Below are positions 6,477-48,038 of a stretch of DNA of 48,809 nt, piece after piece. The notes below the pieces were generated by a model, which worked only from the letters and a program-made list of their open reading frames with translations, had not been told where the DNA came from and made no database searches. The stretch lies in assembly GCA_027624865.1 (NCBI GenBank), contig JAQBTT010000002.1:1-48809 (forward strand). The letters run 5' to 3'. Position numbers and translations under genes: made by a program. The DNA comes from a bacterium (lineage in GTDB: Bacteria; Patescibacteriota; Minisyncoccia; Minisyncoccales; UBA10102). Positions within the stretch are counted from its first letter, which is position 1, and the number at the start of each line of letters is the position of its first letter.

Positions 6477-6565
6477 AATTTCTAATTTTTAATTTAAAAA
6501 CAATTTCTAATTTAAAATTTAAAATTTATCATTGTTTTTGAATTTGAAATTTATCATTTGTTTTT
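6477..6565. repeat. AT-rich spacer repeat, family E (copy E1)
   Basis: Shares attgtttttgaatttgaaatttatcattt (29/29 nt) and tttttaatttaaaaacaatt with 47303-47434; fills the frr-rseP spacer. Confidence 0.8.
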
Positions 6566-8840: not shown

Positions 8841-8870
8841 AATAATGAATAATTATTTTGTAAGGAAGCA

Positions 8871-8935
8871 ACCCCGCCCTCTATGCCATTTAAACTGTGA
8901 TTTTTCTCTTACTTAAACAGCTTAGAGGGCGGGGT
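8871..8935. repeat. GC-clamped hairpin repeat, family B (copy B1)
   Basis: accccgccctcta...tagagggcggggt inverted arms; its loop is similar to copy B3; lies between the murA stop and the mreB start. Confidence 0.85.
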
Positions 8936-8945
8936 AACTCGGATA

Positions 8946-11823: not shown

Positions 11824-11914
11824 AAGAGAACTCCTCGGGAAAGATAAAGAACTATACCTGCTGTTTTCATACCCCAGATTTTCTTTTTTGTCAAAGTGCG
11901 CTATAATGTGTCGT

Positions 11915-13306
11915 ATGACTAAACGTCAGCGTACATTACTGTTTTCCTCGCTCCTTGGTCTTTTTTTTATTCTAGCTCCCTCATTTGCTCTGTATTCACA
12001 AGGATATCGGATTGATTTTCAAGGAGCAAGAATAGCAAAGACAGGTGCTTTTTATTTTAAAGTAGCCCCCTCAAGAGCAGATGTCTTTATTGATGGAAAT
12101 TTAATGAAAAAAACGGATTTCCTCTTTGGTTCTTTGCTTACAAAAAACTTCTTCCCTGAAAGTTACTTCGTTGAGATTGTAAAGGAAGGGTATCACTCCT
12201 GGCAAAAAATCCTTACTATAGAGGAGCAGCAAGTTACCGAAGCAAAGAATATTTTGTTGTTTAAGAAGAACCCTGCATTTCAAAAGCTTGCAGATGGGGT
12301 TTTACATTTTTGGATTTCTCCAAGTAAGCAATATGCAATATTAGAGAAAGCGGGAGAGAAGAAAATGCAATTGCTCAATCTTGAAACTGGGGGCACGGAG
12401 CCCTTGAAAAGAGAAGCACACAAGGGAGATAAGATTATTAATATTACATGGGCAAAGGATTCACGCCGATTCCTGCTTCGCGCCACCAGCAAAGAACAAC
12501 TCATTTACGAGGTTTGGAATATCTCAAATAATAAGCCTTGCTTTCTTATCCCTTGCAGTCTTACATATCTTGGGGAGGATATAGGAAACGTGCAATTTTC
12601 TCCAACATCACCAGAAGAGGTACTCTTCACTAAATTTCTCAATACAACGCAGGTATTGCTTACAGCGCCATACATAGAGCAAGAAATAGCAACTCCAATT
12701 GCAAATAATATTGTAGCTTTTACTAGTTATGGAGATTTTATCTTTTGGCTCGCTAGCGATGGTACACTTTGGCAGAAAGATAGTAATGGAGGTAGCGCAC
12801 CACAAATTTTTCAAGAATCAGCTTTTTTACCAAAAAAAGAAACTGATTATGAATTGAAAGTTGTTGGCGATGCTATATTAGTAAAAGAAGATACGACACT
12901 ATTTTTGCATAAGAGAGGTGACTTGAAGCGACGTGAAATCCTTTCACCTGTCTTTGAATTTGCCATTGATTCAGGTGGCACTAAAGTGGCGCTTTACAAT
13001 CAATCGGAACTATGGGTACTCTTTTTAAAGGAAGAGACAGAGCAGCCACAGCATAATGCAGGAGAGCTAACTTTGCTTACGCGATTTGCGCAATCCCCAA
13101 AACAGATTACCTGGATTGATTCCTCCTACCTTCTCTTCAGCTTAGAGAATATATTGCGTAACGTTGAAATTGACATAAGAGGCAGTCTAAACGTTGTAGA
13201 TATTGCCTCATTCCCCTCTCCAGAATTCTTTTGGAACAACGAAAAAGGCACCCTCTATATCTTAAGCAAGGGTGCCTTCTCTGTTTCCGAACAACTCGTA
13301 CGCTAG
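11915..13306 (+). CDS. Membrane-anchored protein with a PEGA-like domain and a beta-rich C-terminal region
   Basis: The ORF-track start at 11888 is TTG; the ATG at 11915 gives MTKRQRTLLFSSLLGLFFIL (signal anchor). Contains ADVFIDGN...VEIVKEGYHSW (PEGA-like). TATAAT at 11902-11907. Confidence 0.7.
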   Translation: MTKRQRTLLFSSLLGLFFILAPSFALYSQGYRIDFQGARIAKTGAFYFKVAPSRADVFIDGNLMKKTDFLFGSLLTKNFFPESYFVEIVKEGYHSWQKILTIEEQQVTEAKNILLFKKNPAFQKLADGVLHFWISPSKQYAILEKAGEKKMQLLNLETGGTEPLKREAHKGDKIINITWAKDSRRFLLRATSKEQLIYEVWNISNNKPCFLIPCSLTYLGEDIGNVQFSPTSPEEVLFTKFLNTTQVLLTAPYIEQEIATPIANNIVAFTSYGDFIFWLASDGTLWQKDSNGGSAPQIFQESAFLPKKETDYELKVVGDAILVKEDTTLFLHKRGDLKRREILSPVFEFAIDSGGTKVALYNQSELWVLFLKEETEQPQHNAGELTLLTRFAQSPKQITWIDSSYLLFSLENILRNVEIDIRGSLNVVDIASFPSPEFFWNNEKGTLYILSKGAFSVSEQLVR

Positions 13307-13307
13307 G

Positions 13308-13602
13308 TTACCGTTTCCTCCAATGCCGAGTCGCTTGGCTCCATTAAAATGTTCGCCTGCGCTCCTTAAAACCCCTCGGTTTTAATATTTCCGCCACGGG
13401 AAAGAATACTTCTCTCCCGACCCCTCTCTAGACAGTGTCGAAAGCTATCGCTTCCTCCACTGTCTAGTCGCTTGGCTCCATTAAAATGTTCGCCTGCGCT
13501 CCTTAAAACCCCTCGGTTTTAATATTTCCGCCACGGGGAGATACCCAATCTCCCCGACCCCCTCTGTGCAGACAGTGTCAGAAACTACCGTTTCCTCCAC
13601 TG
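13308..13602. repeat. Family G element: two tandem 137-bp units plus three copies of the rpsI 3' end
   Basis: Units 13329-13465 and 13466-13602 share 72 identical nt and then diverge in a hairpin. rpsI-end copies lie at 13308-13325, 13445-13465 and 13585-13602 (the real one). Confidence 0.85.
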
Positions 13603-14434: not shown

Positions 14435-14782
14435 TTATACAAGTTCAATAATTGCAAGTTTAGCTGAGTCTGATTTTCGTGGTCTGCGCTTTATAATTCG
14501 GGTGTATCCTCCTTGCCTCGCCATGTACCGCGGTGCTACCTCATCTACGAGTTTCTTTGCTCCCTCTTCTCCCAGGAGCGCTGTTAAATACCTTCTGTGA
14601 GCAACGCCACCTATCTTTGCTCTTGTAATGATCTTTTCCGCTAAAGGAGAGATATCCTTTGCCTTTGCCTCTGTTGTTTCAATCTTTTCTGCAAGTATTA
14701 AAGAACGGAGCAAGCTTCTCTGCAATGCTTTCCTTGGTCCCGCCTTGCGAGACAGTGTTCTTTTTTTAACTCGCTTTTTCAC
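14435..14782 (-). CDS. rplQ: Ribosomal protein bL17
   Basis: 115-aa ORF (GGYTRIIKRRPRKSD); GTG start abutting repeat C1. Confidence 0.92.
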   Translation of the reverse strand: MKKRVKKRTLSRKAGPRKALQRSLLRSLILAEKIETTEAKAKDISPLAEKIITRAKIGGVAHRRYLTALLGEEGAKKLVDEVAPRYMARQGGYTRIIKRRPRKSDSAKLAIIELV

Positions 14783-14916
14783 CCCAGTACTAGAAATTAG
14801 ACTTCTCCAGAAGTGCGATATATGCGACCATTGTTGATGTTTTGCTTGATGATTTCATAATAGATTAAATGTTATATTTTTGCGAGAGACAGCACTGTCT
14901 AATTTTCAGTACGGGG
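14782..14916. mobile_element. MITE-like element, family C (copy C1)
   Basis: Terminal inverted repeats ccccagtactagaaattagac / gtctaattttcagtacgggg. Flanked by TTCA on both sides, and the proximal copy forms part of the rplQ start codon. Confidence 0.7.
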
Positions 14917-14964
14917 TTCATTAATTTTCTTTAAAAATCAAGGTTCTTGCCATAGGCAAGGTTC

Positions 14965-15744
14965 TTATTTCTTCTTTGCGGTCTTTTTTGCTGCTGGCTT
15001 CTTTTTTACAGGAACTTTCTTTGCTTTTTGCTTTTTTTCTTCTGCTGGCTCACCCACGTCATCTTTCAAGCCACTTTGAACGATTTGGAATTGACCTACA
15101 AGAATACCTGAAGCTTCTTTTAGAGCAGCTTCTGGATTTACCGTACCATCAGTTTCAATCTCCAAGATAAGGCGATCAAAGTCAGTTCTATCTCCAACAC
15201 GCATTTGCTCTACGCGATAGCTCACTCTCCTTATTGGAGTGTAGATAGAATCCATAGCAATGCTCCCAATTTCTGTCTTGCCTCTCCCGCGACTTTCTGC
15301 TGACTCATACCCTACACCTCGGCCAATTTGTACCTCAATATCAAGCTCAGATGCTTTATCAGTGAGACTTGCAACGGGAGCATCTTTACTTGCAACTTCA
15401 ACCTGACTTGGAGTCTTAAAGTCTCTTGCTGTCACCACTTTTACTCCCTTTATTTTCAATGATGCGGTAAATGGACCATCTCCAAATACTCGAAAACGAA
15501 CCTGCTTTAAGTTTAAAAGAATCCCAAGGACATCTTCCTTAATGCCAGAGATTGTTGCAAACTCATGAGAAGCTCCTTTTATCTTTACCTCAGTGATAGC
15601 AGCACCCCCTAAAGAAGATAAAAGAACTCTTCGCAAGCTATTCCCTAATGTTGTGCCATATCCTGGGTATAGGGATTCAATCTCAAAAACTCCTCTGTTG
15701 TCTCCGTTTGATACGATCTTTGTTGTTTTAGAAAATGGAATCAT
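14965..15744 (-). CDS. rpoA: RNA polymerase alpha subunit: NTD only, with a Lys-rich tail replacing the CTD
   Basis: 259-aa ORF. The NTD is recognisable (GYGTTLGNSLRRVLLSS). It ends in EEKKQKAKKVPVKKKPAAKKTAKKK with no alpha-CTD-length sequence. Confidence 0.9.
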   Translation of the reverse strand: MIPFSKTTKIVSNGDNRGVFEIESLYPGYGTTLGNSLRRVLLSSLGGAAITEVKIKGASHEFATISGIKEDVLGILLNLKQVRFRVFGDGPFTASLKIKGVKVVTARDFKTPSQVEVASKDAPVASLTDKASELDIEVQIGRGVGYESAESRGRGKTEIGSIAMDSIYTPIRRVSYRVEQMRVGDRTDFDRLILEIETDGTVNPEAALKEASGILVGQFQIVQSGLKDDVGEPAEEKKQKAKKVPVKKKPAAKKTAKKK

Positions 15745-15774
15745 GCGAAAATAAATTTATTTATTTATTTGAGC

Positions 15775-15876
15775 ACCCCGCCCTCTATGCAGTTGGACAG
15801 AATGCTTATTTTTTACTTTTCACTCTACACTAAAACATACTTCATGCCCTTTGTAAATATGCAGAGAGGGCGGGGT
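15775..15876. repeat. GC-clamped hairpin repeat, family B (copy B2)
   Basis: accccgccctctatgca...tgcagagagggcggggt; followed on the mRNA by the shared leader gctcaaataaataaataaatttattttcgc-ATG(rpoA). Confidence 0.85.
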
Positions 15877-15893
15877 AACTCGGCGCTACCTCG

Positions 15894-16856: not shown

Positions 16857-17015
16857 AATGCTTTTACTTCGTAAAAGAAACTCGAAATTCGAATATCGAA
16901 ATACGAAACAAATTAGAAATTCTAAATTCTAATTTTCTAACCTGTTTTGAATTTTGTATTTTGGTCATTAGTATTTGTTTAGGATTTCGGATTTCGTGCT
17001 TCGGATTTCCCACCG
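16857..17015. repeat. AT-rich heptamer-periodic hairpin spacer, family D (copy D1)
   Basis: Homologous over most of its length to 44171-44313 (cgaaattcgaatatcgaaat...ggatttcggatttcgtgcttcgg). Ends with the hairpin cttttac-ttc-gtaaaag 4 nt from the rpsK ATG. Confidence 0.8.
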
Positions 17016-17405: not shown

Positions 17406-17476
17406 AGTATTTTTACTTCGTAAAAGAATTTCTAATTTCTAAACCCTAGTTTCTAAATAGAAGGTTGGAATACTAT

Positions 17477-26221: not shown

Positions 26222-26493
26222 ATGTTTAAGAGTCCAAGCGTGATCATACTTACAATGATCCCTGCTATTATGTGCCCCAATAGCATTATTGTTAAGGGGA
26301 AAATAGCTATTAACATATAGTAATGCCACATGTTAGTACGGACACAATGGCTGCAGCCATTATGTGCCCCAATAGCATTATTGTTAAGGGAAAAATAGCT
26401 ATTAACATATAGTAATGCCACATGTTAGTACGGACACAATGGCTGCAGCCATTATAACGCCAAAAAGGATAAGAGGAAATGCCTTGCGAAACG
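26218..26493. repeat. Three tandem 92-bp units, each encoding a variant of the C-terminal TM helix of the upstream membrane-protein gene
   Basis: 26267-26358 equals 26359-26450 apart from one base (26300 g vs 26392 a). The units read ...GVIMAAAIVSVLTCGITIC*, ...GHIMAAAIVSVLTCGITIC* and ...GHIIAGIIVSMITLGLLNI*. Confidence 0.85.
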
Positions 26494-28389: not shown

Positions 28390-28974
28390 CTAAAAGAGTC
28401 CGCTTACTGCTGTTTCCATATCCTCCTGTACTTTCTTCACGTCTTGATTTCCATTTACCTCAACAAGCTTTCCTTGTTTTCTGTAGTGCTCAATAACTGG
28501 GACTACCTCATCTTCGTACCATTCCATTCGTTTTGCAATTGCTGACGCACTATCATCTGCGCGACCGCGCATCAAGAGACGCTTCTCAGACTCCTCCTTT
28601 GAAATACTCAGGTGAATCACTCTAAAGTTCTCCTCAAGCTCATAGAACTGATAAATCTCATCTAGAAGAAAGGCTTCATATACTTTTCGAGGGCTCCCCT
28701 CAAAAACAATCCCTTGATATTCTCCCTTTTCCTGTATGCTCTCCAGCTCATGTAACCACATATCAAATATGATAGGTGTCGGCATCAATCCTCCTGTGTT
28801 TAATATCTCCTTAATTTTAGTTCCAATAAAATCTTCCTTTTCTGCGCGCTCACGCAAAAGTCCTCCTGAGCTAATAATTTTTAAATTAAACTCCTTGGCA
28901 AGAAACGCTGATTGCGTCCCCTTCCCTGAGCCTGGTCTTCCCAGAATAGGGATAATAGAAAACTTCTTATTCAT
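28390..28974 (-). CDS. Adenylate/nucleoside-monophosphate kinase paralogue (short LID)
   Basis: 194-aa ORF with P-loop GRPGSGKGTQ and GGLLRE. Confidence 0.8.
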   Translation of the reverse strand: MNKKFSIIPILGRPGSGKGTQSAFLAKEFNLKIISSGGLLRERAEKEDFIGTKIKEILNTGGLMPTPIIFDMWLHELESIQEKGEYQGIVFEGSPRKVYEAFLLDEIYQFYELEENFRVIHLSISKEESEKRLLMRGRADDSASAIAKRMEWYEDEVVPVIEHYRKQGKLVEVNGNQDVKKVQEDMETAVSGLF

Positions 28975-29684
28975 ACACCTTGTGCAATTGTATTGATACG
29001 TGAGAACACCTCTGACACAGAACCAGTGGCAGAAATACGATGCACGGGGATTCCTTGCTCTTCAAAATACTCAAGCAATGGGAAGGTCTCCTTTCTAAAT
29101 GTTGCAAGACGCGTTGTGATAAGCTCAGGAGTATCGAAAGAGCGAGTAATCAACTTTGAGCCATCAAGAGGGCACAGAGTTAATTGCTCCGTTTCTTTAA
29201 TATATAAAATGGGGTGGCGTACAAGCTCACAAATACGTCGATGAGAATTTCGAAATATCGTATCCTCTTCATCAACATCAAGGTACAGAACAATAATATT
29301 TTCTTTTCCAAATGATTCAAGAGCAAAAGGCATGAGATATTCCATTTGAGAAATAGCTCGAGGAAATCCATCAAGTAGTATGCTTTGCTCCTCTCTCTTT
29401 AATCTTTTTAGGCGAGCCCTGACTGTATCTACAACGAAAGGAGTCTCATTGAGCACTCCACTTTCCCAAAGCTTTTGCTGATCTGCAACGTAATACTTCT
29501 TCCCTTCACTCTCTACATACTCTCCGGGCTCTGCATTCAAAAACCTCTCTTCCAAGAGTTTACTCATCTCAATGCGAGTAAGGCGCAATTTATCAGCTAA
29601 CAGGAGTGTCTGAGTTCCTTTTCCAGAACCTGGTGCACCAAGAAAGATATAGAGACGTTCTTTTAATTGTTGAGGAAGTTCCAT
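28971..29684 (-). CDS. adk: Adenylate kinase (long form)
   Basis: 237-aa ORF with P-loop GAPGSGKGTQ and LLDGFPR, in the canonical position after secY. Confidence 0.85.
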   Translation of the reverse strand: MELPQQLKERLYIFLGAPGSGKGTQTLLLADKLRLTRIEMSKLLEERFLNAEPGEYVESEGKKYYVADQQKLWESGVLNETPFVVDTVRARLKRLKREEQSILLDGFPRAISQMEYLMPFALESFGKENIIVLYLDVDEEDTIFRNSHRRICELVRHPILYIKETEQLTLCPLDGSKLITRSFDTPELITTRLATFRKETFPLLEYFEEQGIPVHRISATGSVSEVFSRINTIAQGV

Positions 29685-29687
29685 TGG

Positions 29688-30968
29688 TTAAAACGTGTCA
29701 TATTCTCTCATTTGAAGCTGAGCACGTATTTGACGCAGAGTTTCCAAAACCACAGAAACCACAATGAGGAGGGCGGTACCTCCCAAAAGAAATTGGAACG
29801 AAGCAATTTGAGTTGCTCCTTGCACGATAGAAGGCATAACAGCAATAGTTCCTAGAAATAGTGCTCCAACTAATAAAATTCGGTTCAAGATAAAAGAAAG
29901 GAAATTGGAAGTAGAAACACCGGGCCGTACCCCTGGGATAAAGCCACCCATCTTTTGCAGGTTCGTAGCAATTGATTTTGGATCAAAGGTTACTGCTGTA
30001 TAGAAAAAGGTAAACATTACCACGAGCAAGAAATAAAGAATTCCATACGCCCATGGGTTCACTAAAAAGTTTTGCACACCATTCGCAATGTTCCCAATAA
30101 AGCCTCCAACTCCTACAAGAAACGAAGCTACCATTCCAGGAATAGTGAGCAAGGATAGAGCAAAGATAATAGGGATAACACCTGCTGGGTTTACTTGGAG
30201 TGGAAGATAGGTTGAGGCTCCGCCAAACATCTTGTTCCCGCGAACTCGCTTTGCATAGGAAACCGGGATATTACGCCTGGCCTCCGTGATATACACCACC
30301 CCTGCAATAATAACAATTGCCATAACAAAAAAGGCAACATAGGCAGGGAGACGAGTTGGATCATAGGCAAGAAACATTTGTCTAATGGAAGAAGGAAAGC
30401 CCGTGACAATACCTGCAAAAATAAGCAAAGATACCCCATTTCCAATACCTTTTTCAGTAATAAGTTCCCCAAGCCACATCAGGAGCATTGTCCCTGCTGT
30501 GATGGTTACAAGGGCTGTGACAAGGATTTCAGGACTCAAGTGATCAATTACCTGCTGTTGCGTCAAAAGAGCCAAGAATCCGTATCCTTGCAAAAAAGCA
30601 AAAGGAACAGCAAGATACCTGCCATACTGGTTAAACTTCGCTCTTCCTGTCTCCCCTTCCTCTTTATACAGTCTTTCCAGGGCAGGAACAATCATGGTTA
30701 AAAGCTGCATGATAATAACAGCTGTAATGTAGGGACCAAGTCCAAGCATGACAATAGAAAGACTATCCAATGCTCCACCAGTAAACAGGTTTAAAAGGCC
30801 AAAGAGTTGATTGTTTGAGAAAAATTCCTCAATGCGCGCTGTATCAATACCTGGCATTGGGATATTTGCCATGAGACGAAACAATACAAAGATACCCAAA
30901 ACAAACAGAATTTTCTTCCTTAGATCAGGAATCTGAAATGTTCGAATGATGTTATAGAGCCAACTCAT
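29688..30968 (-). CDS. secY: Preprotein translocase subunit SecY
   Basis: 426-aa polytopic ORF (LGLGPYITAVIIMQLL...). Confidence 0.95.
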   Translation of the reverse strand: MSWLYNIIRTFQIPDLRKKILFVLGIFVLFRLMANIPMPGIDTARIEEFFSNNQLFGLLNLFTGGALDSLSIVMLGLGPYITAVIIMQLLTMIVPALERLYKEEGETGRAKFNQYGRYLAVPFAFLQGYGFLALLTQQQVIDHLSPEILVTALVTITAGTMLLMWLGELITEKGIGNGVSLLIFAGIVTGFPSSIRQMFLAYDPTRLPAYVAFFVMAIVIIAGVVYITEARRNIPVSYAKRVRGNKMFGGASTYLPLQVNPAGVIPIIFALSLLTIPGMVASFLVGVGGFIGNIANGVQNFLVNPWAYGILYFLLVVMFTFFYTAVTFDPKSIATNLQKMGGFIPGVRPGVSTSNFLSFILNRILLVGALFLGTIAVMPSIVQGATQIASFQFLLGGTALLIVVSVVLETLRQIRAQLQMREYDTF

Positions 30969-31396
30969 GTGATGCTACCACCGCTCTCTTCAATGGACTT
31001 CTTTGCGCCAGCCGTAAGGAGACATCCTTGAACTGAAAGTGGGCTTTCTAATATAGCTATTCCTACGATTTTTACTACAGGAGGCACTCCTCTCTTTTGA
31101 AATATCAATTCCTTCTCAAATAAGCTTGCAGGAGAAATGAGTTCGTCCTTTGAAAATTTCTTTACAATCATTTGCAAGGTAACTGTTTGAGGTTTGCGCT
31201 GTCTTTTCACTCCCCTATATCCCTTCAGCTTAGGATAACGCTTTAATACCTCTCTGACAACAGGGGCCACCTTTCCTCCAGCTCTTGATTTCTGTCCCTT
31301 CATTCCACGCCCAGAATAAGTGCCTCTTTTGCCACCTCTTCCAATACGCTTTTTTGAAGCTCTTTTCGTTTTTGGTTTTATTTCGTGTAATTGCAT
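30965..31396 (-). CDS. rplO: Ribosomal protein uL15
   Basis: 143-aa ORF (RIGRGGKRGTYSGRGMKGQKSR). Confidence 0.94.
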   Translation of the reverse strand: MQLHEIKPKTKRASKKRIGRGGKRGTYSGRGMKGQKSRAGGKVAPVVREVLKRYPKLKGYRGVKRQRKPQTVTLQMIVKKFSKDELISPASLFEKELIFQKRGVPPVVKIVGIAILESPLSVQGCLLTAGAKKSIEESGGSIT

Positions 31397-31397
31397 A

Positions 31398-31597
31398 CCA
31401 GGTACTAGAAATTAGACTTCTCTTGACTCTGTAGTGAATTTTGGACATGCTTTCGCAAACAAAGTTTGGTCCAAAATCTACTACGGGGTTGACTTGCGAT
31501 ATATGCGACCATTGTTGGTATTTTATTTAAAGATTTCATAATGAGTTGAATATTGTGTTTTGGCGAGAAATAGCAAGGTCTAATTTTCAGTACCTGG
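31398..31597. mobile_element. MITE-like element, family C (copy C2) with a nested family F element at 31428-31488
   Basis: 20-nt TIRs ccaggtactagaaattagac / gtctaattttcagtacctgg, flanked by CATA on both sides (the proximal copy is the rplO start codon). The nested 61-nt hairpin element is flanked by a TTGAC direct repeat that is absent from C1. Confidence 0.75.
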
Positions 31598-31601
31598 CAT
31601 A

Positions 31602-32150
31602 CTACAAAGTTTCCTCTTTTACCTTTTCTTCAACTTCTTCTTTCTTTGGCTCTTTTCCTTTTTCGTCGCTCACCTGAAGCATTCGAATAGCTGCCAAAGT
31701 TGCCAGTGCATTGTTTAACTTATTTCTACTTCGCGTAATAGTTTTAGCAGAGATATTCTTGATTCCTGCTTTTTCTGCAATAATTCTTGTAACTCCCCCA
31801 GCAACTAACCCACGTCCTTGCTTTTGAGGTTTCAGTAAAATACGTGAAGCGCCAAATGTAGCTGTAACTTCATGCGCAATTGTATCGTTAACGATAGGTA
31901 CAGTAACCAAGCTCTTTGTGGCCTTGCGAGTTGCTTTCTCTATTGCTTGCGCAACATCAGCGCCCTTTGCAACGCCGACTCCCACTCGAGCCTTATGATC
32001 TCCCACTACCACTACAGCGCGAAAACGGAATCTTCTTCCGCCGGCTGACACACGAACAACACGCGCTAAATCGACGAGCTTTGAATCAAACTCGGATTTC
32101 TCTCGTGGTTTCCCTCTTTGCTCAAATTGTTTTCGCTGTTTTCCTGGCAT
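31602..32150 (-). CDS. rpsE: Ribosomal protein uS5
   Basis: 182-aa ORF (VVRVSAGGRRFRFRAVVVVGD...). Confidence 0.94.
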   Translation of the reverse strand: MPGKQRKQFEQRGKPREKSEFDSKLVDLARVVRVSAGGRRFRFRAVVVVGDHKARVGVGVAKGADVAQAIEKATRKATKSLVTVPIVNDTIAHEVTATFGASRILLKPQKQGRGLVAGGVTRIIAEKAGIKNISAKTITRSRNKLNNALATLAAIRMLQVSDEKGKEPKKEEVEEKVKEETL

Positions 32151-33080: not shown

Positions 33081-33170
33081 AAATTTCTAATTTCTAAATC
33101 CTAATTTTAAATTAAATCCTCTCCCTTCCCGAGATCTCCCACAGGGAGACAATGACCAAATACTTTCTGT

Positions 33171-36167: not shown

Positions 36168-36194
36168 ATGCGAAAATAAATTTATTTATTGAGC

Positions 36195-36281
36195 ACCCCG
36201 CCCTCTATGCCGTTCAAACTGTGTAATCTTTCATTGCTCAAACAGCTTAGAGGGCGGGGTTTCGTAGCGCTTCTGCGCTAC
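36195..36281. repeat. GC-clamped hairpin repeat, family B (copy B3), plus the accessory hairpin gtagcgc-ttct-gcgctac
   Basis: accccgccctcta...tagagggcggggt at 36195-36260. The small hairpin at 36264-36281 contains the rpsC TAG stop. Shared leader gctcaataaataaatttattttcgc before the rplP ATG. Confidence 0.85.
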
Positions 36282-36910: not shown

Positions 36911-36935
36911 GCGAAAATAAATTTATTTATTGAGC

Positions 36936-37054
36936 ACCCCGCCCTCTAGGCTCTATGTACTGTTGTTGAAGACTCACAGGGCAAGATTTCTTTCAATATA
37001 GCGTCTTCAAACATACAGCATAGAGGGCGGGGTTTCGTAGCGCTTCTGCGCTAC
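36936..37054. repeat. GC-clamped hairpin repeat, family B (copy B4), plus the accessory hairpin
   Basis: The same arms and the same gtagcgcttctgcgctac hairpin as B3, but a different loop. Shared leader before the rpsC ATG. Confidence 0.85.
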
Positions 37055-40301: not shown

Positions 40302-40319
40302 AAATGGTTTATATCTTTA

Positions 40320-40346
40320 CAACAAAACACCGGACCTAACCCGGTG
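40320..40346 (-). terminator. Terminator-like hairpin in the rplC leader (candidate attenuator)
   Basis: caccgg-gttaggt-ccggtg followed by TTTTGTTG, about 20 nt upstream of the rplC ATG and about 65 nt downstream of a promoter. Confidence 0.45.
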
Positions 40347-40409
40347 CTCAAAAAAGCTTTCGGTTAAACCCTCACTGCTCACAAGGCTAGCTTAGTGTTC
40401 ACAAAATAG

Positions 40410-40438
40410 AGTATATATCAATGACAAAAGAATGTCAA
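40410..40438 (-). promoter_or_regulatory. Sigma70-like promoter TTGACA-17-TATACT for rplC and downstream genes
   Basis: -35 at 40433-40438 and -10 at 40410-40415. Confidence 0.65.
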
Positions 40439-40588
40439 TAACAAAAAGGGTTGGGGAAGAGGAGGAAGGCTTGGAGCGGTAGCTCAACAAAGCGCATGCC
40501 CCTCCTGGACGAGTCATGTCGCCCAGTCCCGCTTTCCCTATACCATCTTTAAAATAATAAGCAAGATGATGTACGAGATGAGTTCAAA

Positions 40589-40616
40589 TGAAAAGCCCCG
40601 TTTTTCTTCACGGGGC
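40589..40616 (-). terminator. Intrinsic terminator after the Cys-rich ORF
   Basis: gccccg-tgaagaaaaa-cggggc followed by TTTTC on the minus strand. Confidence 0.75.
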
Positions 40617-40644
40617 TTTGTTCTCTCTTAAGCTATGGGGCATC

Positions 40645-40872
40645 TTATGCACTTTCTTGAGCAGCCTCTTGCATCCGCTCCTTCCGTTCCCCTTCTGTAA
40701 GTCCCCGCCCCCACCATTTAGGACAACTTCCATCAGGGCAAAGATGCACGTCAGGCTCGCTACAGGTGCCACAGAGAGACAGGCCACACCCACCACCAAC
40801 TGGGCAAGACCATTCCATTCCTCCAGTTGGCTGCGCGCATTGCCCGCAAACTCTTACCTCAGGCATCTTCAT
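40645..40872 (-). CDS. Hypothetical 75-aa Cys-rich (8 Cys, two CxxC) protein
   Basis: MKMPEVRVCGQCAQPTGGMEWSCPVGGGCGLSLCGTCSEPDVHLCPDGSCPKWW...; GGAGG 4 nt upstream; GC-rich; has its own terminator. Confidence 0.6.
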   Translation of the reverse strand: MKMPEVRVCGQCAQPTGGMEWSCPVGGGCGLSLCGTCSEPDVHLCPDGSCPKWWGRGLTEGERKERMQEAAQESA

Positions 40873-40979
40873 CCTACCTCCAAGCTACCAAGTCTAATCT
40901 ATTCATACCACTCTCATCTAAGAAATCAACTTTATTAAAAAATCACCTAAATGGCAATTCTCTCTTAGTACCCATATAT

Positions 40980-41010
40980 CAATACCACACCATGGTATGG
41001 TGTGGTATTG
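40980..41010. promoter_or_regulatory. Perfect 14-bp inverted repeat (3-nt spacer) upstream of the Cys-rich ORF
   Basis: caataccacaccat ggt atggtgtggtattg. Confidence 0.5.
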
Positions 41011-41054
41011 GTACAAGATAAAAAGTACCAGAGGTATCTGTTAATATCTTAACT

Positions 41055-41088
41055 AGAGCGCGGCCGAGAACTGTTCTCGGCCGCCCAA
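41055..41088. repeat. 34-nt GC-rich palindromic repeat R (copy 1)
   Basis: agagCgcggccgagaac t gttctcggccgcccaa; identical to 41756-41789 apart from one base. Confidence 0.85.
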
Positions 41089-41126
41089 GCTTCGCTAAGC
41101 TTAACTAGGTTTAGGAGGATTAAAAA

Positions 41127-41170
41127 CAAAAAAAGAAAGCCTCGCACAGGATTATTGCCGTGTGCGAGGC
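41127..41170 (-). terminator. Intrinsic terminator after the 106-aa ORF
   Basis: gcctcgcaca-12 nt-tgtgcgaggc followed by a long T-rich run on the minus strand. Confidence 0.85.
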
Positions 41171-41187
41171 TTTTTGAAACGCATATC

Positions 41188-41508
41188 TCATGCAGTCAAA
41201 AGAACGGGATTGCCCAAGCTGTTATGAAGCGCCTCAACGACTATTGGCGGGCTGGCCGGAACAAACACTCGTTGAAGCTTTGGAGCCTCCAAAACAGAAC
41301 CCCATGCCTTTGCTCCTTGTACCGCGCGCAAAAGTGTTCTACGAAGAGCCCTGGAAGAAGTACAAAAGATATAGGAATCTGCACCCCAAAGTCCAAACTC
41401 AAGGCCGGGAATGCGAACTATCCAAAGAAAACCGTCGTTTTCTGGAAAGAGCCATATCTCTGGCTCACTTGTTATTTCCTGAAGCTGGATGGTCAACATG
41501 GTCAACAT
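41188..41508 (-). CDS. Hypothetical 106-aa protein
   Basis: MLTMLTIQLQEITSEPEIWLFPENDGFLWIVRIPG...; GGGGAGGGA 4 nt upstream of the ATG; promoter and terminator present. Confidence 0.55.
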   Translation of the reverse strand: MLTMLTIQLQEITSEPEIWLFPENDGFLWIVRIPGLEFGLWGADSYIFCTSSRALRRTLLRAVQGAKAWGSVLEAPKLQRVFVPASPPIVVEALHNSLGNPVLLTA

Positions 41509-41555
41509 AGTATCCCTCCCCTGCTTTCTATTCGTGTGGTAAAACGCTTTCACCC

Positions 41556-41584
41556 AGATTACGCAACTTCACCGCTATAGTCAA
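41556..41584 (-). promoter_or_regulatory. Candidate promoter TTGACT-17-TAATCT
   Basis: -35 at 41579-41584 and -10 at 41556-41561, upstream of the 106-aa ORF. Confidence 0.45.
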
Positions 41585-41703
41585 CACAGCTAAACCAAAA
41601 ACCCGCCCACATGGCGATTCTGTAAAACTTGCTCCGAGCAAGGTGGGGATAACTTAGCCTGACTAAGTTTGAATAACTAAATTCGGTTTAGCTTTCTGCA
41701 ATG

Positions 41704-41738
41704 CTGGGCTGGGCTAAGACTGTCTTAGCCCAGCCCAG
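41704..41738. repeat. Perfect 17+1+17 palindrome
   Basis: ctgggctgggctaagac t gtcttagcccagcccag, with a single central T like repeat R and the TrpR-flanking palindromes. Confidence 0.85.
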
Positions 41739-41755
41739 TACGCGTTCGCCTATCC

Positions 41756-41789
41756 AGAGGGCGGCCGAGAACTGTTCTCGGCCGCCCAA
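41756..41789. repeat. 34-nt GC-rich palindromic repeat R (copy 2)
   Basis: agagGgcggccgagaac t gttctcggccgcccaa. Confidence 0.85.
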
Positions 41790-41873
41790 TGTTGCTCCCC
41801 TTGCAGAACGTACTAAGAACTTTTGAGTGGATGAGTATAAAGGAAAAAATGAGGAAATTTCCTTCTTTTATGC

Positions 41874-41908
41874 AAAAGAAAGCCCGAGTTGCCATTGCTA
41901 CTCGGGCT
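41874..41908 (-). terminator. Intrinsic terminator after the 84-aa membrane ORF
   Basis: agcccgag-12 nt-ctcgggct followed by TTCTTTT on the minus strand. Confidence 0.8.
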
Positions 41909-41953
41909 CTTGATTCTTCGTTTCTCATCTCGTCAACTGTAAAGATTCACAAA

Positions 41954-42208
41954 CTACGGCCAACCCTTCTTGGCTACTATTCGGTGGGTGATGGAACCAA
42001 ACAGTAGTCCAGCGAGTCCACCAATGAGTACGCCAACACCGATGCTGTCCCCTCTAACAGATTCAGAAAGAAGACATAGGGCAAGCATGACAAGCATGCC
42101 TAGCACCACCCCACCAAGAACTCCTAAAAGTTCTCTCGAGAAGACGTCGAAAAAAAGATGTGCGACAAAGTACAGCGGTACAGCGAGCTTTACTGGATTA
42201 TCATTCAT
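41954..42208 (-). CDS. Hypothetical 84-aa two-TM glycine-zipper membrane peptide
   Basis: MNDNPVKLAVPLYFVAHLFF...GVLGGVVLGMLVMLAL...GVGVLIGGLAGLLFG...; AAGGGAG 6 nt upstream of the ATG, downstream of a TATAAT promoter. Confidence 0.6.
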   Translation of the reverse strand: MNDNPVKLAVPLYFVAHLFFDVFSRELLGVLGGVVLGMLVMLALCLLSESVRGDSIGVGVLIGGLAGLLFGSITHRIVAKKGWP

Positions 42209-42251
42209 GATAACTCCCTTCCCAATCATAGGATCACTATCGTGTCTTGCC

Positions 42252-42279
42252 ATTATACCTATTCTCTCTTGTAATTCAA
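42252..42279 (-). promoter_or_regulatory. Sigma70-like promoter TTGAAT-16-TATAAT
   Basis: -10 at 42252-42257 and -35 at 42274-42279. Confidence 0.6.
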
Positions 42280-42295
42280 TGAAGGCTACGCTACC

Positions 42296-42320
42296 AAAAA
42301 ACCGCCCCGAAAGGGGCAGT
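42296..42320 (-). terminator. Short intrinsic terminator directly after rpsJ
   Basis: GCCCC-tttc-GGGGC followed by GGTTTTTT on the minus strand. Confidence 0.6.
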
Positions 42321-42346
42321 TCTTTCAAACTAAGCTTAGCTTAGTT

Positions 42347-44170: not shown

Positions 44171-44313
44171 AGGCTTTTACTTCTTAAAAGAAATTCGAAT
44201 ATCGAATATCGAAATTAGAAACAAATACAAAAATTCTAATGTTCCAAGTTGAAAGCTTTTTATATTTTGGGTTTTAGTCATTGGGATTTGTTTCGGATTT
44301 CGTGCTTCGGGTT
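44171..44313. repeat. AT-rich heptamer-periodic hairpin spacer, family D (copy D2)
   Basis: Homologous to 16857-17015; ends with cttttac-ttc-ttaaaag 3 nt from the ORF-69 ATG. Confidence 0.8.
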
Positions 44314-46452: not shown

Positions 46453-46492
46453 ATTAGTTATGAGTATTAAATACTTGCGAATGTTGATGTAA

Positions 46493-46561
46493 GAGAGGGG
46501 TCGGGAGAGAAGTATTCTCTCCCGTGGCGGAAATATTAAAACCGAGGGGTTTTAAGGAGCG
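46493..46561. repeat. Family G core (copy G3), inverted relative to the rpsI-locus copies
   Basis: The reverse complement matches cgctccttaaaacccctcggttttaatatttccgccacgggaRagaatacttctctcccgacccctctc of 13360-13430. Confidence 0.85.
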
Positions 46562-46573
46562 AGGGACGAGCGA

Positions 46574-46636
46574 CGCGTCGATATGGGCGATAATCCCAAT
46601 ATCACGGATTTGCTCTATAGGATATTGTCTTGGCAT
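46574..46636 (-). pseudogene. Orphan diverged copy of the first 21 codons of fusA
   Basis: [21 protein letters not shown] versus the real [21 protein letters not shown]. Many synonymous differences; it runs into the G3 element and a stop codon. Confidence 0.8.
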
Positions 46637-46638
46637 AT

Positions 46639-46680
46639 AGGAATTAGGAATTAGGTTGTAGGTTGTAGGTTGTAGGAGGC
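46639..46680. repeat. Six tandem heptamers (AGGAATT x2, AGGTTGT x3, AGGAGGC)
   Basis: Read directly from the sequence. The same AGGTTGT x3 tract occurs inside gatA at 1686-1720. Confidence 0.9.
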
Positions 46681-46691
46681 GAGGCAATGAA

Positions 46692-46809
46692 TTTTTAACA
46701 AGCTCGCGCAGGCGATTTGGCATGGTCTCCGAGCTTGCCGAGGAGAAAACTTCCGAGGGTGCAGCTCCCAATTTGCGCTGGCGAATTGAGGAGCGGTTCT
46801 CAAGAAAAC
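46692..46809. repeat. Structured GC-rich repeat, family A (copy A3)
   Basis: gcatggtc, ccgagggtgcagctcccaa and gaggagcggttc blocks are conserved. The distal hairpin is rewritten as caatttgc-gctg-gcgaattg. Confidence 0.75.
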
Positions 46810-46834
46810 AGCATCCAAGCATCATCTCCATCCC

Positions 46835-47302: not shown

Positions 47303-47434
47303 ATAACTTTTATTGCGTAAAAGAAATTTCTAATTTCAAATTTTTAATTTAAAAACAATTCACTAATTTCTAATTTTAAAATTGAATATTTGAAATTGTT
47401 TTTGAATTTGAAATTTATCATTTAAAATTTATAC
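47303..47434. repeat. AT-rich spacer repeat, family E (copy E2)
   Basis: Shares two long blocks with 6477-6565; ends with cttttat-tgc-gtaaaag 4 nt from the rpsG ATG. Confidence 0.8.
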
Positions 47435-47848
47435 TTAGGACTTCTGTCGTTTGGTTCCGTACTTACTTCGAACCTGCTTTCTTCCTTCCACTCCCGAAGC
47501 GTCCAACACGCCTCGAACAATGTGATATCTGACTCCAGGCAAGTCTTTTACTCTTCCTCCTCTGAGCAAAACTACGGAGTGCTCCTGCAAGTTATGCCCC
47601 ATTCCAGGAATATAAGCAGTAACCTCCATTCCATTTGAAAGACGTATTCTTGCTACTTTACGTAATGCAGAGTTTGGCTTTTTGGGCGTAGTGGTAAAAA
47701 CCCGCAAGCAAACTCCCCTCTTGAAGGGAGCGGGGTACCGTACGGGCTGATTCTTTTTTGTATTAAACCCAAAAGTCAACGCAGGAGTTTTATCCTTCCC
47801 TTTTGCTTTCTTTCGAGGGTTTTTTATTAATTGATGAATAGTAGGCAT
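47435..47848 (-). CDS. rpsL: Ribosomal protein uS12
   Basis: 137-aa ORF ([14 protein letters not shown]...[16 protein letters not shown]). Confidence 0.96.
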
Positions 47849-47850
47849 AT

Positions 47851-47987
47851 CCTGTAGTGAAACTTCCAGTTATCTTTTAAGATTTCGTAATTGTTGTGCG
47901 TTTAGCATCATTGGTATTTGTTGCTTACTATTCTAGCCCCATAATCTCCAAAAGATAAAGAAATCTTCTGAAAATTCTACTACGGGG
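47851..47987. mobile_element. MITE-like element, family F (copy F2), in the rpsL leader
   Basis: Its termini cctgtagtga... and ...ctactacgggg are the same as those of nested F1. Flanked by the direct repeat CATAT (47846-47850 and 47988-47992); the proximal copy contains the rpsL ATG. Confidence 0.65.
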
Positions 47988-48009
47988 CATATAAACAATT
48001 TCACACAAA

Positions 48010-48038
48010 AGCTTATCAAAATTCTTGCAATTTGTCAA
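48010..48038 (-). promoter_or_regulatory. Candidate str-operon promoter TTGACA-17-TAAGCT
   Basis: -35 at 48033-48038 and -10 at 48010-48015. Confidence 0.5.

Follow-up and report, generated by a model that had tools for sequence, protein, structure and literature searches.

MITE-like elements of two related families at rebuilt start codons in ribosomal-protein operons of a Patescibacteria genome

Mycobacterial interspersed repetitive units (MIRUs) are inserted at start codons, where an internal open reading frame (ORF) is coupled to the gene with little effect on expression, as described in the portions of PMC12548453 (citing Supply et al. 1997) and PMC3184786 that deal with them. As portrayed there, MIRUs are 40- to 100-bp units, often in tandem arrays (variable-number tandem repeats, VNTRs), and there is a 4-nt overlap between their ORF and the downstream start. 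In the corresponding portion of PMC3184786, the Neisseria REP2 and Borrelia upstream repeats lie directly upstream of genes and supply the translation start, with a promoter and a ribosome-binding site as well as an ATG of their own. Here, we describe two families of small elements, C and F, that were located at the start codons of rplO, rplQ, and rpsL in a 48,809-nt stretch of DNA (contig JAQBTT010000002.1 of assembly GCA_027624865.1, referred to here in its full length as the window), whose proteins had their best matches in metagenome-assembled genomes (MAGs) of Patescibacteria/candidate phyla radiation (CPR) bacteria. Our analysis indicated that C (135 nt) and F (61 to 137 nt) were likely to be related, nonautonomous families of DNA transposons resembling MITEs (miniature inverted-repeat transposable elements), which insert at start codons, rebuild the start, and may be crossed by a translational relay. 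We assigned this joint reading a probability of about 80%.

Like the MIRUs of these accounts, the C elements were small repeats located in operons at start codons, and in the consensus and some of the copies an internal ORF ran in the same direction as the genes and could link the upstream stop to the downstream start. In contrast, MIRUs, as far as the cited portions describe them, have neither long terminal inverted repeats nor covarying 4- to 5-bp duplications of the kind present in C and F. The relay ORF of C ended 7 nt before the start and was intact in 4 of 10 copies, a single copy rather than a tandem array was found at every C or F site, and the host phylum differed. We considered MIRUs to be the closest precedent for C and F. 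In the case of the REP2 and Borrelia repeats, judging from the cited portion, the difference was in what the element supplied. C and F brought no promoter, ribosome-binding site, or ATG, and the start consisted of the duplicated target plus one terminal base of the element.

Among bacterial MITEs, the Neisseria Correia/NEMIS, pneumococcal RUP, and enterobacterial ERIC elements resembled C and F in being 100 to 200 bp long and in having terminal inverted repeats, a long hairpin in the cotranscribed mRNA, a short target duplication, many dispersed copies, and no encoded transposase. Correia elements duplicate TA and have a characteristic 26-bp inverted repeat. Their insertions are close to genes without occupying start codons and face either way, and some may contain promoters or IHF sites. 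The duplications of C and F were 4 to 5 bp, their termini had a different sequence, and neither feature was related to those of the Correia, RUP, or ERIC elements. The IS1380 family has "CC" ends and 4- to 5-bp duplications, and the CC termini and duplication length of C and F were alike; no IS1380-like transposase or matching inverted repeat was found, nor was either tested for. In our search of the literature on MITEs in CPR bacteria or Patescibacteria, no account of elements like these turned up. Elements of this kind are already known; the novelty lies in their start-codon register and fixed orientation, in the way that both stop and start are preserved at ATGA overlaps, and in the host lineage.

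The window was gene dense, carried nearly all of its genes on the minus strand, and contained the str/S10/spc/alpha ribosomal-protein operons. All of the elements, flanking repeats, and genes described in this paragraph were on the minus strand. Element C2 (31398-31597, 200 nt), a profile (nhmmer) match, was located between the rpsE stop (31602-31604; rpsE, 31602-32150) and the start of rplO (30965-31396), which was followed by secY. Its arms were ccaggtactagaaattagac and gtctaattttcagtacctgg, with inverted termini of 20 nt, and it was flanked by CATA (sense, TATG) at 31394-31397 and 31598-31601. The proximal duplication held the rplO ATG (31394-31396), and the distal duplication was immediately 3' of the rpsE TAG stop; the flanking repeat could alternatively be read as 5 bp, CATAC. 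Element C1 (14782-14916, 135 nt) was located upstream of rplQ (14435-14782) and was separated from the stop of rpoA (14965-15744) by 48 nt. Its duplications were TTCA (sense, TGAA) at 14778-14781 and 14917-14920, so that the sense strand read ATGAA on the distal side and GTGAA on the proximal side. The distal TGAA, together with the A at 14921, made up the retained ancestral ATG. The proximal TGAA supplied the TG of the rplQ start (GTG, 14780-14782) and the AA of the second codon, AAA, and the G of this GTG, which is the complement of position 14782, was the final sense-strand base of C1. Element F2 (47851-47987, 137 nt) was located about 240 nt after the preceding gene, within the 5' leader of rpsL (47435-47848), and was flanked by the 5-bp duplication CATAT (sense, ATATG) at 47846-47850, which contained the rpsL ATG, and at 47988-47992. 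The fourth element, F1 (31428-31488), was a 61-nt F-family hairpin element within C2. The arm pattern had four matches in the window compared to 0.4 expected. On rereading the sequence, we found the coordinates and strings in the original prediction to be correct for all four elements. Its proposal that the insertions were exactly at stop/start junctions held for C2 and for four of the MAG copies described below, but not for F2, which was in a 5' leader, or for C1 as now placed.

Between the rpoA stop and C1 (14925-14964), we observed a small hairpin (CTTGCC-TAT-GGCAAG) and a direct repeat (AAGAACCTTG, present twice). The hairpin was scored as terminator-like on the plus strand, and a similar motif was found in the rpsL/rpsG spacer of a relative (L023).

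To locate the corresponding junctions in relatives, we used matches to the L15, L17, and S12 proteins. The original prediction, which viewed these sequences as transposed elements, could be examined in this way, and empty sites were present at all three loci. At rpsE/rplO, relatives with L15 proteins that were 85%, 76%, and 73% identical had TAGTATGCAA, in which the stop is followed by one base and an ATG (empty sites in relatives L012 to L017). This junction was exactly the window sequence minus C2 and one TATG. At rpoA/rplQ, the empty site was ATGAAAAAGCG in relatives L018 to L022 and AATAATGAAAAAGCG in relatives with 84 to 83% identical L17 proteins, and MAG GCA_030698465.1, which contained seven C copies, was uninterrupted at this position (GGTATATGAAAAAGAGG). 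Both of the empty rpoA/rplQ junctions corresponded to the window sequence minus C1 and one TGAA. Thus, the ancestral rplQ start was an ATG, and the present GTG was produced by the C1 insertion. In the case of the rpsL leader, the relative with a 92% identical S12 protein (L023) had no insert (tgtttcatATGCC), and the counterpart in the window was tgtttATATG[F2]ATATGCC. A TTGACA...TAAGCT box upstream of the insertion point was common to both. This box (48010-48038, minus strand; TTGACA, 17 nt, TAAGCT) is probably the rpsL promoter, and it would now be parted from the start codon by F2; a consensus promoter scan gave no call at this box, which leaves the evidence for a promoter weak. The 200-amino-acid matches to S12 (P0241 to P0244) were found to be duplicated misassemblies and not read-through of an element.

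An exact search with an 18-nt arm, in one representative genome per species, yielded eight further full-length C copies. Seven were on separate contigs of GCA_030698465.1, in which L17 was 68% identical to that of the window, and the eighth came from a Yanofskybacteria MAG of the same sample. The C census therefore comprised 10 copies in three genomes (2 in the window and 8 in MAGs), whereas the F census comprised 2 copies. The eight MAG copies were 134 to 137 nt in length, and all 10 C copies were flanked by 4-bp direct repeats: TTCA in 7 cases, TACA/TACA in locus L010, CTCA/CTCA in locus L006, and CATA/CATA in C2. Because the flanks covaried with the site, the repeats were duplicated target rather than element sequence, which is what the transposition proposal had predicted for other copies.

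Sequence from the window was also present elsewhere, namely, on an ENA metagenome scaffold and on a Logan contig of aquatic metagenome origin. In the source metagenome, contig depth was about 6 in the flanks and 25 to 68 inside C and F1, which pointed to additional copies, and loose ends included additional ...ATGAA|CCCC and ...ATATG|CCCC junctions. F1-like sequences were found on short contigs, and the interior of F2 was single copy. Most of the other F1-like copies started with CCCGTAGTG, which is nearer to the F consensus than the TCTGTAGTG of F1. No match to the C or F arms was found in viral contigs, and BLAST searches with C1 found no match in plasmid and phage records. A scan of JGI metagenomes with the 5' arm gave one chance match only, for which the second arm was not found.

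The nested element provided a further empty site. F1 was flanked by the 5-bp repeat TTGAC at 31423-31427 and 31489-31493, so that C2 consisted of a 135-nt core, F1, and its 5-bp duplication; removal of F1 and one TTGAC left 135 nt, the canonical C length. A single TTGAC was present at this position in the eight other C copies, all from other genomes. The original prediction had named C1 as the empty site for F1, and C1 was indeed empty, but it was not an exact counterpart because it had CCAGAAG there, a diverged empty site. A source-metagenome contig that covered window positions 31401-31540 contained the C left arm and, at the TTGAC site used by F1, an F1-like insert whose loop differed. Either the C::F composite moves as a subfamily in its own right or the TTGAC site is a hot spot for insertion; both are possible.

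As outlined above, C and F had the properties of MITEs. They were small (135, 200, 137, and 61 nt), encoded no transposase (the longest internal ORF was 43 codons), and had terminal inverted repeats, with F arms of about 11 to 18 nt. They also had duplications that varied with the site (4 bp, possibly 5 bp, for C and 5 bp for F), empty sites, and dispersed copies. That C and F constitute a new pair of MITE-like families in CPR bacteria is well supported by these data. The two families had similar termini, CCCCGTACTG.. in C and CCCCGTAGTAG.. in F, and similar duplication lengths, and hence one enzyme may move both. Such a transposase would act in trans.

The most unusual property of the C elements was their register relative to genes. 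In all 10 copies, the start codon adjoined the element, the downstream ORF started at the element boundary, and the same arm was gene proximal. The downstream genes were unrelated to each other and encoded a class I tRNA synthetase (IleS type by motif), a HAMP-domain protein, RNase III, a NifS-like aminotransferase, YceG, RecR, an MreD-like protein, L17, and L15, and the ORF downstream of the copy in locus L009 had no Pfam match. The Pfam domains aligned from the first profile positions, indicating that the starts at the element boundary were true N termini. The copy upstream of the RNase III gene (L005, 7222-7356 in GCA_030698465.1) was on the start codon of rnc, and RNase III is most likely the enzyme that would cut the 24-bp duplex of a C transcript.

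The way in which the target was duplicated explained how genes on both sides remained intact. In four of the MAG copies, the target was an ATGA stop/start overlap, and the distal repeat, which preserves the old ATG, also contained the TGA stop of the upstream gene. At these junctions, the distal TGAA retained the stop, and the proximal TGAA formed GTG or ATG with the G or A at the element's end. C2 and F2 had a different register in which the duplicated TATG or ATATG included the entire ATG. Thus, the old ATG (with the TGA at overlaps) is preserved in the distal repeat, a start is rebuilt by the proximal repeat, and both flanking frames survive. The earlier proposal that the duplication regenerates a start codon was borne out in 10 of 10 C copies and in F2. 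As a rough null, which is approximate because it rests on our own gene list, the window contained 81 TGAA sites at which insertion would be nondisruptive, and 9 of these were start codons; all seven of the TGAA-type copies were on one (p of about 2e-7). The orientation of C relative to the gene was also nonrandom, although both termini end in GGGG and the element could rebuild GTG either way round.

The start-codon bias probably reflects mainly survivorship. In a packed genome, a hairpinned insert would stay translated only at a start codon, and imprecise deletion could not remove it. We also considered a transposition machinery that recognizes start-codon regions (RTGAA or NATG plus context), such that the bias arises from mechanism rather than selection. 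All copies were at start codons despite the roughly 70 intergenic TGAA sites available in the window, and the register varied (TGAA, TGTA, TGAG, TATG, and ATATG) such that the common feature was ATG/GTG and not a fixed tetramer, both of which would be expected of active targeting. On the other hand, the reconstructed targets showed no conservation beyond R-T-G-A/T-A/G, F1 had inserted at GTCAA inside another element and not at a start codon, and we know of no DDE transposase that reads start codons. Active targeting is possible, but we think it is the less probable source of the bias.

The second question was how the downstream gene would be translated in operons that carry C or F, for which our proposal is an inferred route. 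In the consensus C element, the reading frame of the distal ATG was open for 43 codons and closed with a TAG that lay in the 3' arm, 7 nt short of the rebuilt start. Ribosomes probably still initiate at the retained distal ATG, using the original Shine-Dalgarno (SD) sequence or ATGA coupling, and read into the element, melting the 24-bp terminal stem. They would then expose the rebuilt start or stop at the UAG in the 3' arm and reinitiate, in a manner similar to the MIRU relay. The frame was intact in exactly the four copies located at ATGA overlaps (Fisher p = 0.005, a post hoc test on a small sample). In every C copy, it was open across all or most of the 5' arm, so melting of the stem would still be expected of a ribosome that started at the distal ATG. 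With C inverted, a ribosome reading from that ATG would meet a stop after 7 codons, which may account for the fixed orientation.

The stem that such ribosomes would have to melt was examined in a consensus fold of the 10 C copies. The fold contained a 19-bp terminal helix and, across a 9-nt bulge, a 5-bp inner helix (CGTGC/GCACG), and 98% of the cells in these 24 pairs were paired. In C1, the 5' arm of the stem assigned by the consensus fold and the pair counts was located at 14892-14916 (minus strand; sense, CCCCGTACTGAAAATTAGAC followed by the inner AGTGC) and paired with the 3' arm at 14782-14816. Four pairs had changed on both sides with pairing kept, compared to 0.5 in shuffles, and none of 500 shuffles reached four. 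These compensatory changes were a C-G to A-U change in the inner helix of C1, a G-C to U-A change in C2, a U-A replacement of the terminal pair in L006, and the ends of C2 (CCAGG/CCTGG). The fold z-scores relative to shuffled sequence were -7.4 for C2 and -3.6 for C1, and the identity between C copies was 94% in the arms and 75% in the interior, a comparison partly biased by the use of one arm in the search. The pairing of the C stem itself is maintained, and it may act as DNA or as RNA and on either strand.

In the interior of C1 and C2, a promoter-like antisense match was observed at the same internal position on the plus strand (14834-14861 and 31515-31542; TTGATG or TTGGTA, 16 nt, CATAAT). 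The CATAAT block was kept in most of the 10 C copies, and the antisense promoter score was weak, near the shuffle rate. A terminator scan detected none within the elements, and Rfam searches of the three sites, at gathering thresholds and at E<=1, yielded no match to an element, only two tRNAs elsewhere and noise.

Several observations weigh against the joint reading. We did not find an autonomous element or a transposase with C or F termini in about 250 kb of the window plus the loci. The census was small (10 C copies and 2 F copies), and apparent arm conservation was inflated because 8 of the C copies had been retrieved by an exact 18-nt arm match. Template switching in the palindrome could yield compensatory changes in the arms without selection. 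The folds did not tell the strand, as the wobbles and mismatches in C were balanced and the F arms paired better in the antisense direction. The relay frame was broken in 6 of 10 copies by CAA>TAA changes or indels, including C2, which is at a junction with 1 nt between stop and start and in which the frame stopped at codon 7, inside the 5' arm. We rejected the idea that the relay ORF encodes a conserved protein, because most of the changes were nonsynonymous and most of the frames were broken. In the search for a transposase, we also rejected the ORF at 11888-13306, the sole plus-strand ORF. It had no Pfam match, and an ORF of the same size, on the same strand, and in the same position after rpsI was found in relatives, indicating that it is a resident gene.

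A more ambitious version of the proposal is that C and F are "translation-neutral" transposons of ultracompact genomes. These elements would home to start codons, including ATGA overlaps, their termini would re-create stop and start, they would carry a relay ORF and a stem that ribosomes can melt, and the relay would be selected only at coupled genes. We view this version as tentative, and it is doubtful that all of its parts hold.

The mechanism in the original prediction was different. It proposed that the element is untranslated and that its stem loops out the 135 to 200 nt, bringing the stop or the SD sequence to the rebuilt start, with coupling or SD-dependent initiation across the base of the helix. 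Phage T4 genes 38 and 25 have hairpins that shorten the distance between SD and AUG. A long, conserved, and covarying stem fits such bridging, as does the arrangement in C2, in which the stop or SD and the start directly flank the base of the helix; the stem, however, is equally expected for transposition. Furthermore, a helix of 24 bp that terminates at the start codon would be expected to prevent binding of the 30S subunit, and the effective SD-AUG spacing would grow by the 4- to 5-nt duplicate and the width of the helix. Bridging also leaves the single orientation unexplained, as GTG could be formed with either terminus, and it does not explain why a long internal ORF was kept solely at ATGA junctions. 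We therefore consider structural bridging unlikely. Translation from the distal ATG would fit the sequence data at least as well as coupling by stem pairing.

RNA processing is less likely still. Here, the stem would be a substrate of RNase III, and cleavage would split the operon transcript such that the downstream gene keeps only a very short leader and is translated independently. The transcript would indeed contain a near-perfect 19+5-bp duplex, RNase III is encoded in these genomes (and one C copy was at the start of its gene), and Neisseria Correia elements are cleaved by RNase III. However, cleavage would strip away the original SD or coupling, the 3' arm had no obvious replacement signal, and the start-codon register would be left unexplained.

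We also asked whether C and F might be single-strand elements moved by a Y1/HUH transposase, of the REPIN/RAYT or IS200/IS605 PATE type, rather than cut-and-paste MITEs. The compensatory changes in the hairpin, the strict orientation relative to cooriented genes, a GTAG motif in the F termini, and a preferred tetranucleotide 5' of the element were all in line with this idea. Y1 elements lack target duplications, yet the extra 4 to 5 nt always copied the local target. C and F differed from REP/REPIN elements in having target duplications and empty sites that held the repeat once, and from IS200/IS605 PATEs in having duplicated and variable flanks and strictly terminal pairing. Thus, movement by a Y1/HUH transposase seems very improbable.

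Finally, ancient cis-regulatory leaders of ribosomal-protein genes, or assembly artifacts, were hardly tenable: despite the position upstream of such genes and the stable fold, the leader idea was refuted by empty orthologous junctions in relatives with 73 to 92% identical flanking proteins, C copies were also upstream of unrelated genes and had no Rfam match, and two assemblies made independently from the source sample both contained C2.

The window contained other repeats next to genes. One family (15745-15893, 36168-36277, 36911-37054, and 8841-8945) had a GC-rich hairpin (..ACCCCGCCCTCTAWGC ... GCATAGAGGGCGGGGT..), after which came the conserved sequence AATAAATAAATTTATTTTCGC. This tail ended directly at the ATG of rpoA, rplP, and rpsC, and the mreB copy had a different AT-rich tail. 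Because relative L014 had only ATATT between rplV and rpsC, the GC-rich hairpin repeats appeared to be lineage-specific inserts that abut start codons. A second group consisted of AT-rich AATTTCTAATTT-type repeats at 16857-17015, 17406-17472, 44171-44313, and 47303-47434 (also 6477-6565 and 33081-33118). These repeats ended in the hairpin CTTTTAC-GAAG-TAAAAG, which was separated by 3 to 6 nt from the ATG that follows it; the genes concerned were rpsK, rpsM, rpsG, and a small ORF after fusA. Five matches to the hairpin motif were obtained compared to 0.27 expected (four sites, with the palindrome counted on both strands at one). The AATTTCTAATTT-type repeats may be a shared translation initiation leader or a third mobile family.

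Further irregularities were observed in the spacing and copy number of the window. A 137-nt unit was tandemly repeated at 13309-13537, after a 472-amino-acid ORF. A 70-nt piece of this unit, inverted and 99% identical, was found in an insert of about 380 nt between rpsG and fusA (46453-46834), where relatives had about 100 nt; it looks like a very recent copy of another element. The gap between rpsJ and rplC (40302-42346) was about 2 kb, had no Pfam-recognizable gene, and contained a 27-nt inverted repeat that was 96% complementary (41060-41086 and 41759-41785), and relatives had 140 to 340 nt or an inserted short-chain dehydrogenase gene at this position. Two adjacent adenylate kinase genes (28390-29684) were present compared to one in relative L014, and a 92-nt tandem duplication with 92% identity was found in a region with a membrane protein-like ORF (26252-26435).

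CPR bacteria/Patescibacteria have tiny genomes with tight gene packing, and little has been written about the mobile elements in them. C and F are well-documented small transposons that persist in essential operons, including ribosomal-protein operons, rpoA, and a tRNA synthetase gene, and they persist there because they land on start codons and rebuild them. In practical terms, the inserts alter start codons (from ATG to GTG) and give rise to spurious ATGs upstream, by which gene callers may be misled in MAGs. If the proposed relay and unfolding of the stem by ribosomes are correct, C and F would be a second independent case, after MIRUs, of a repeat made harmless by translational coupling, and they would provide a natural test bed for termination-reinitiation and for ribosome unwinding across a 135-nt structured spacer.

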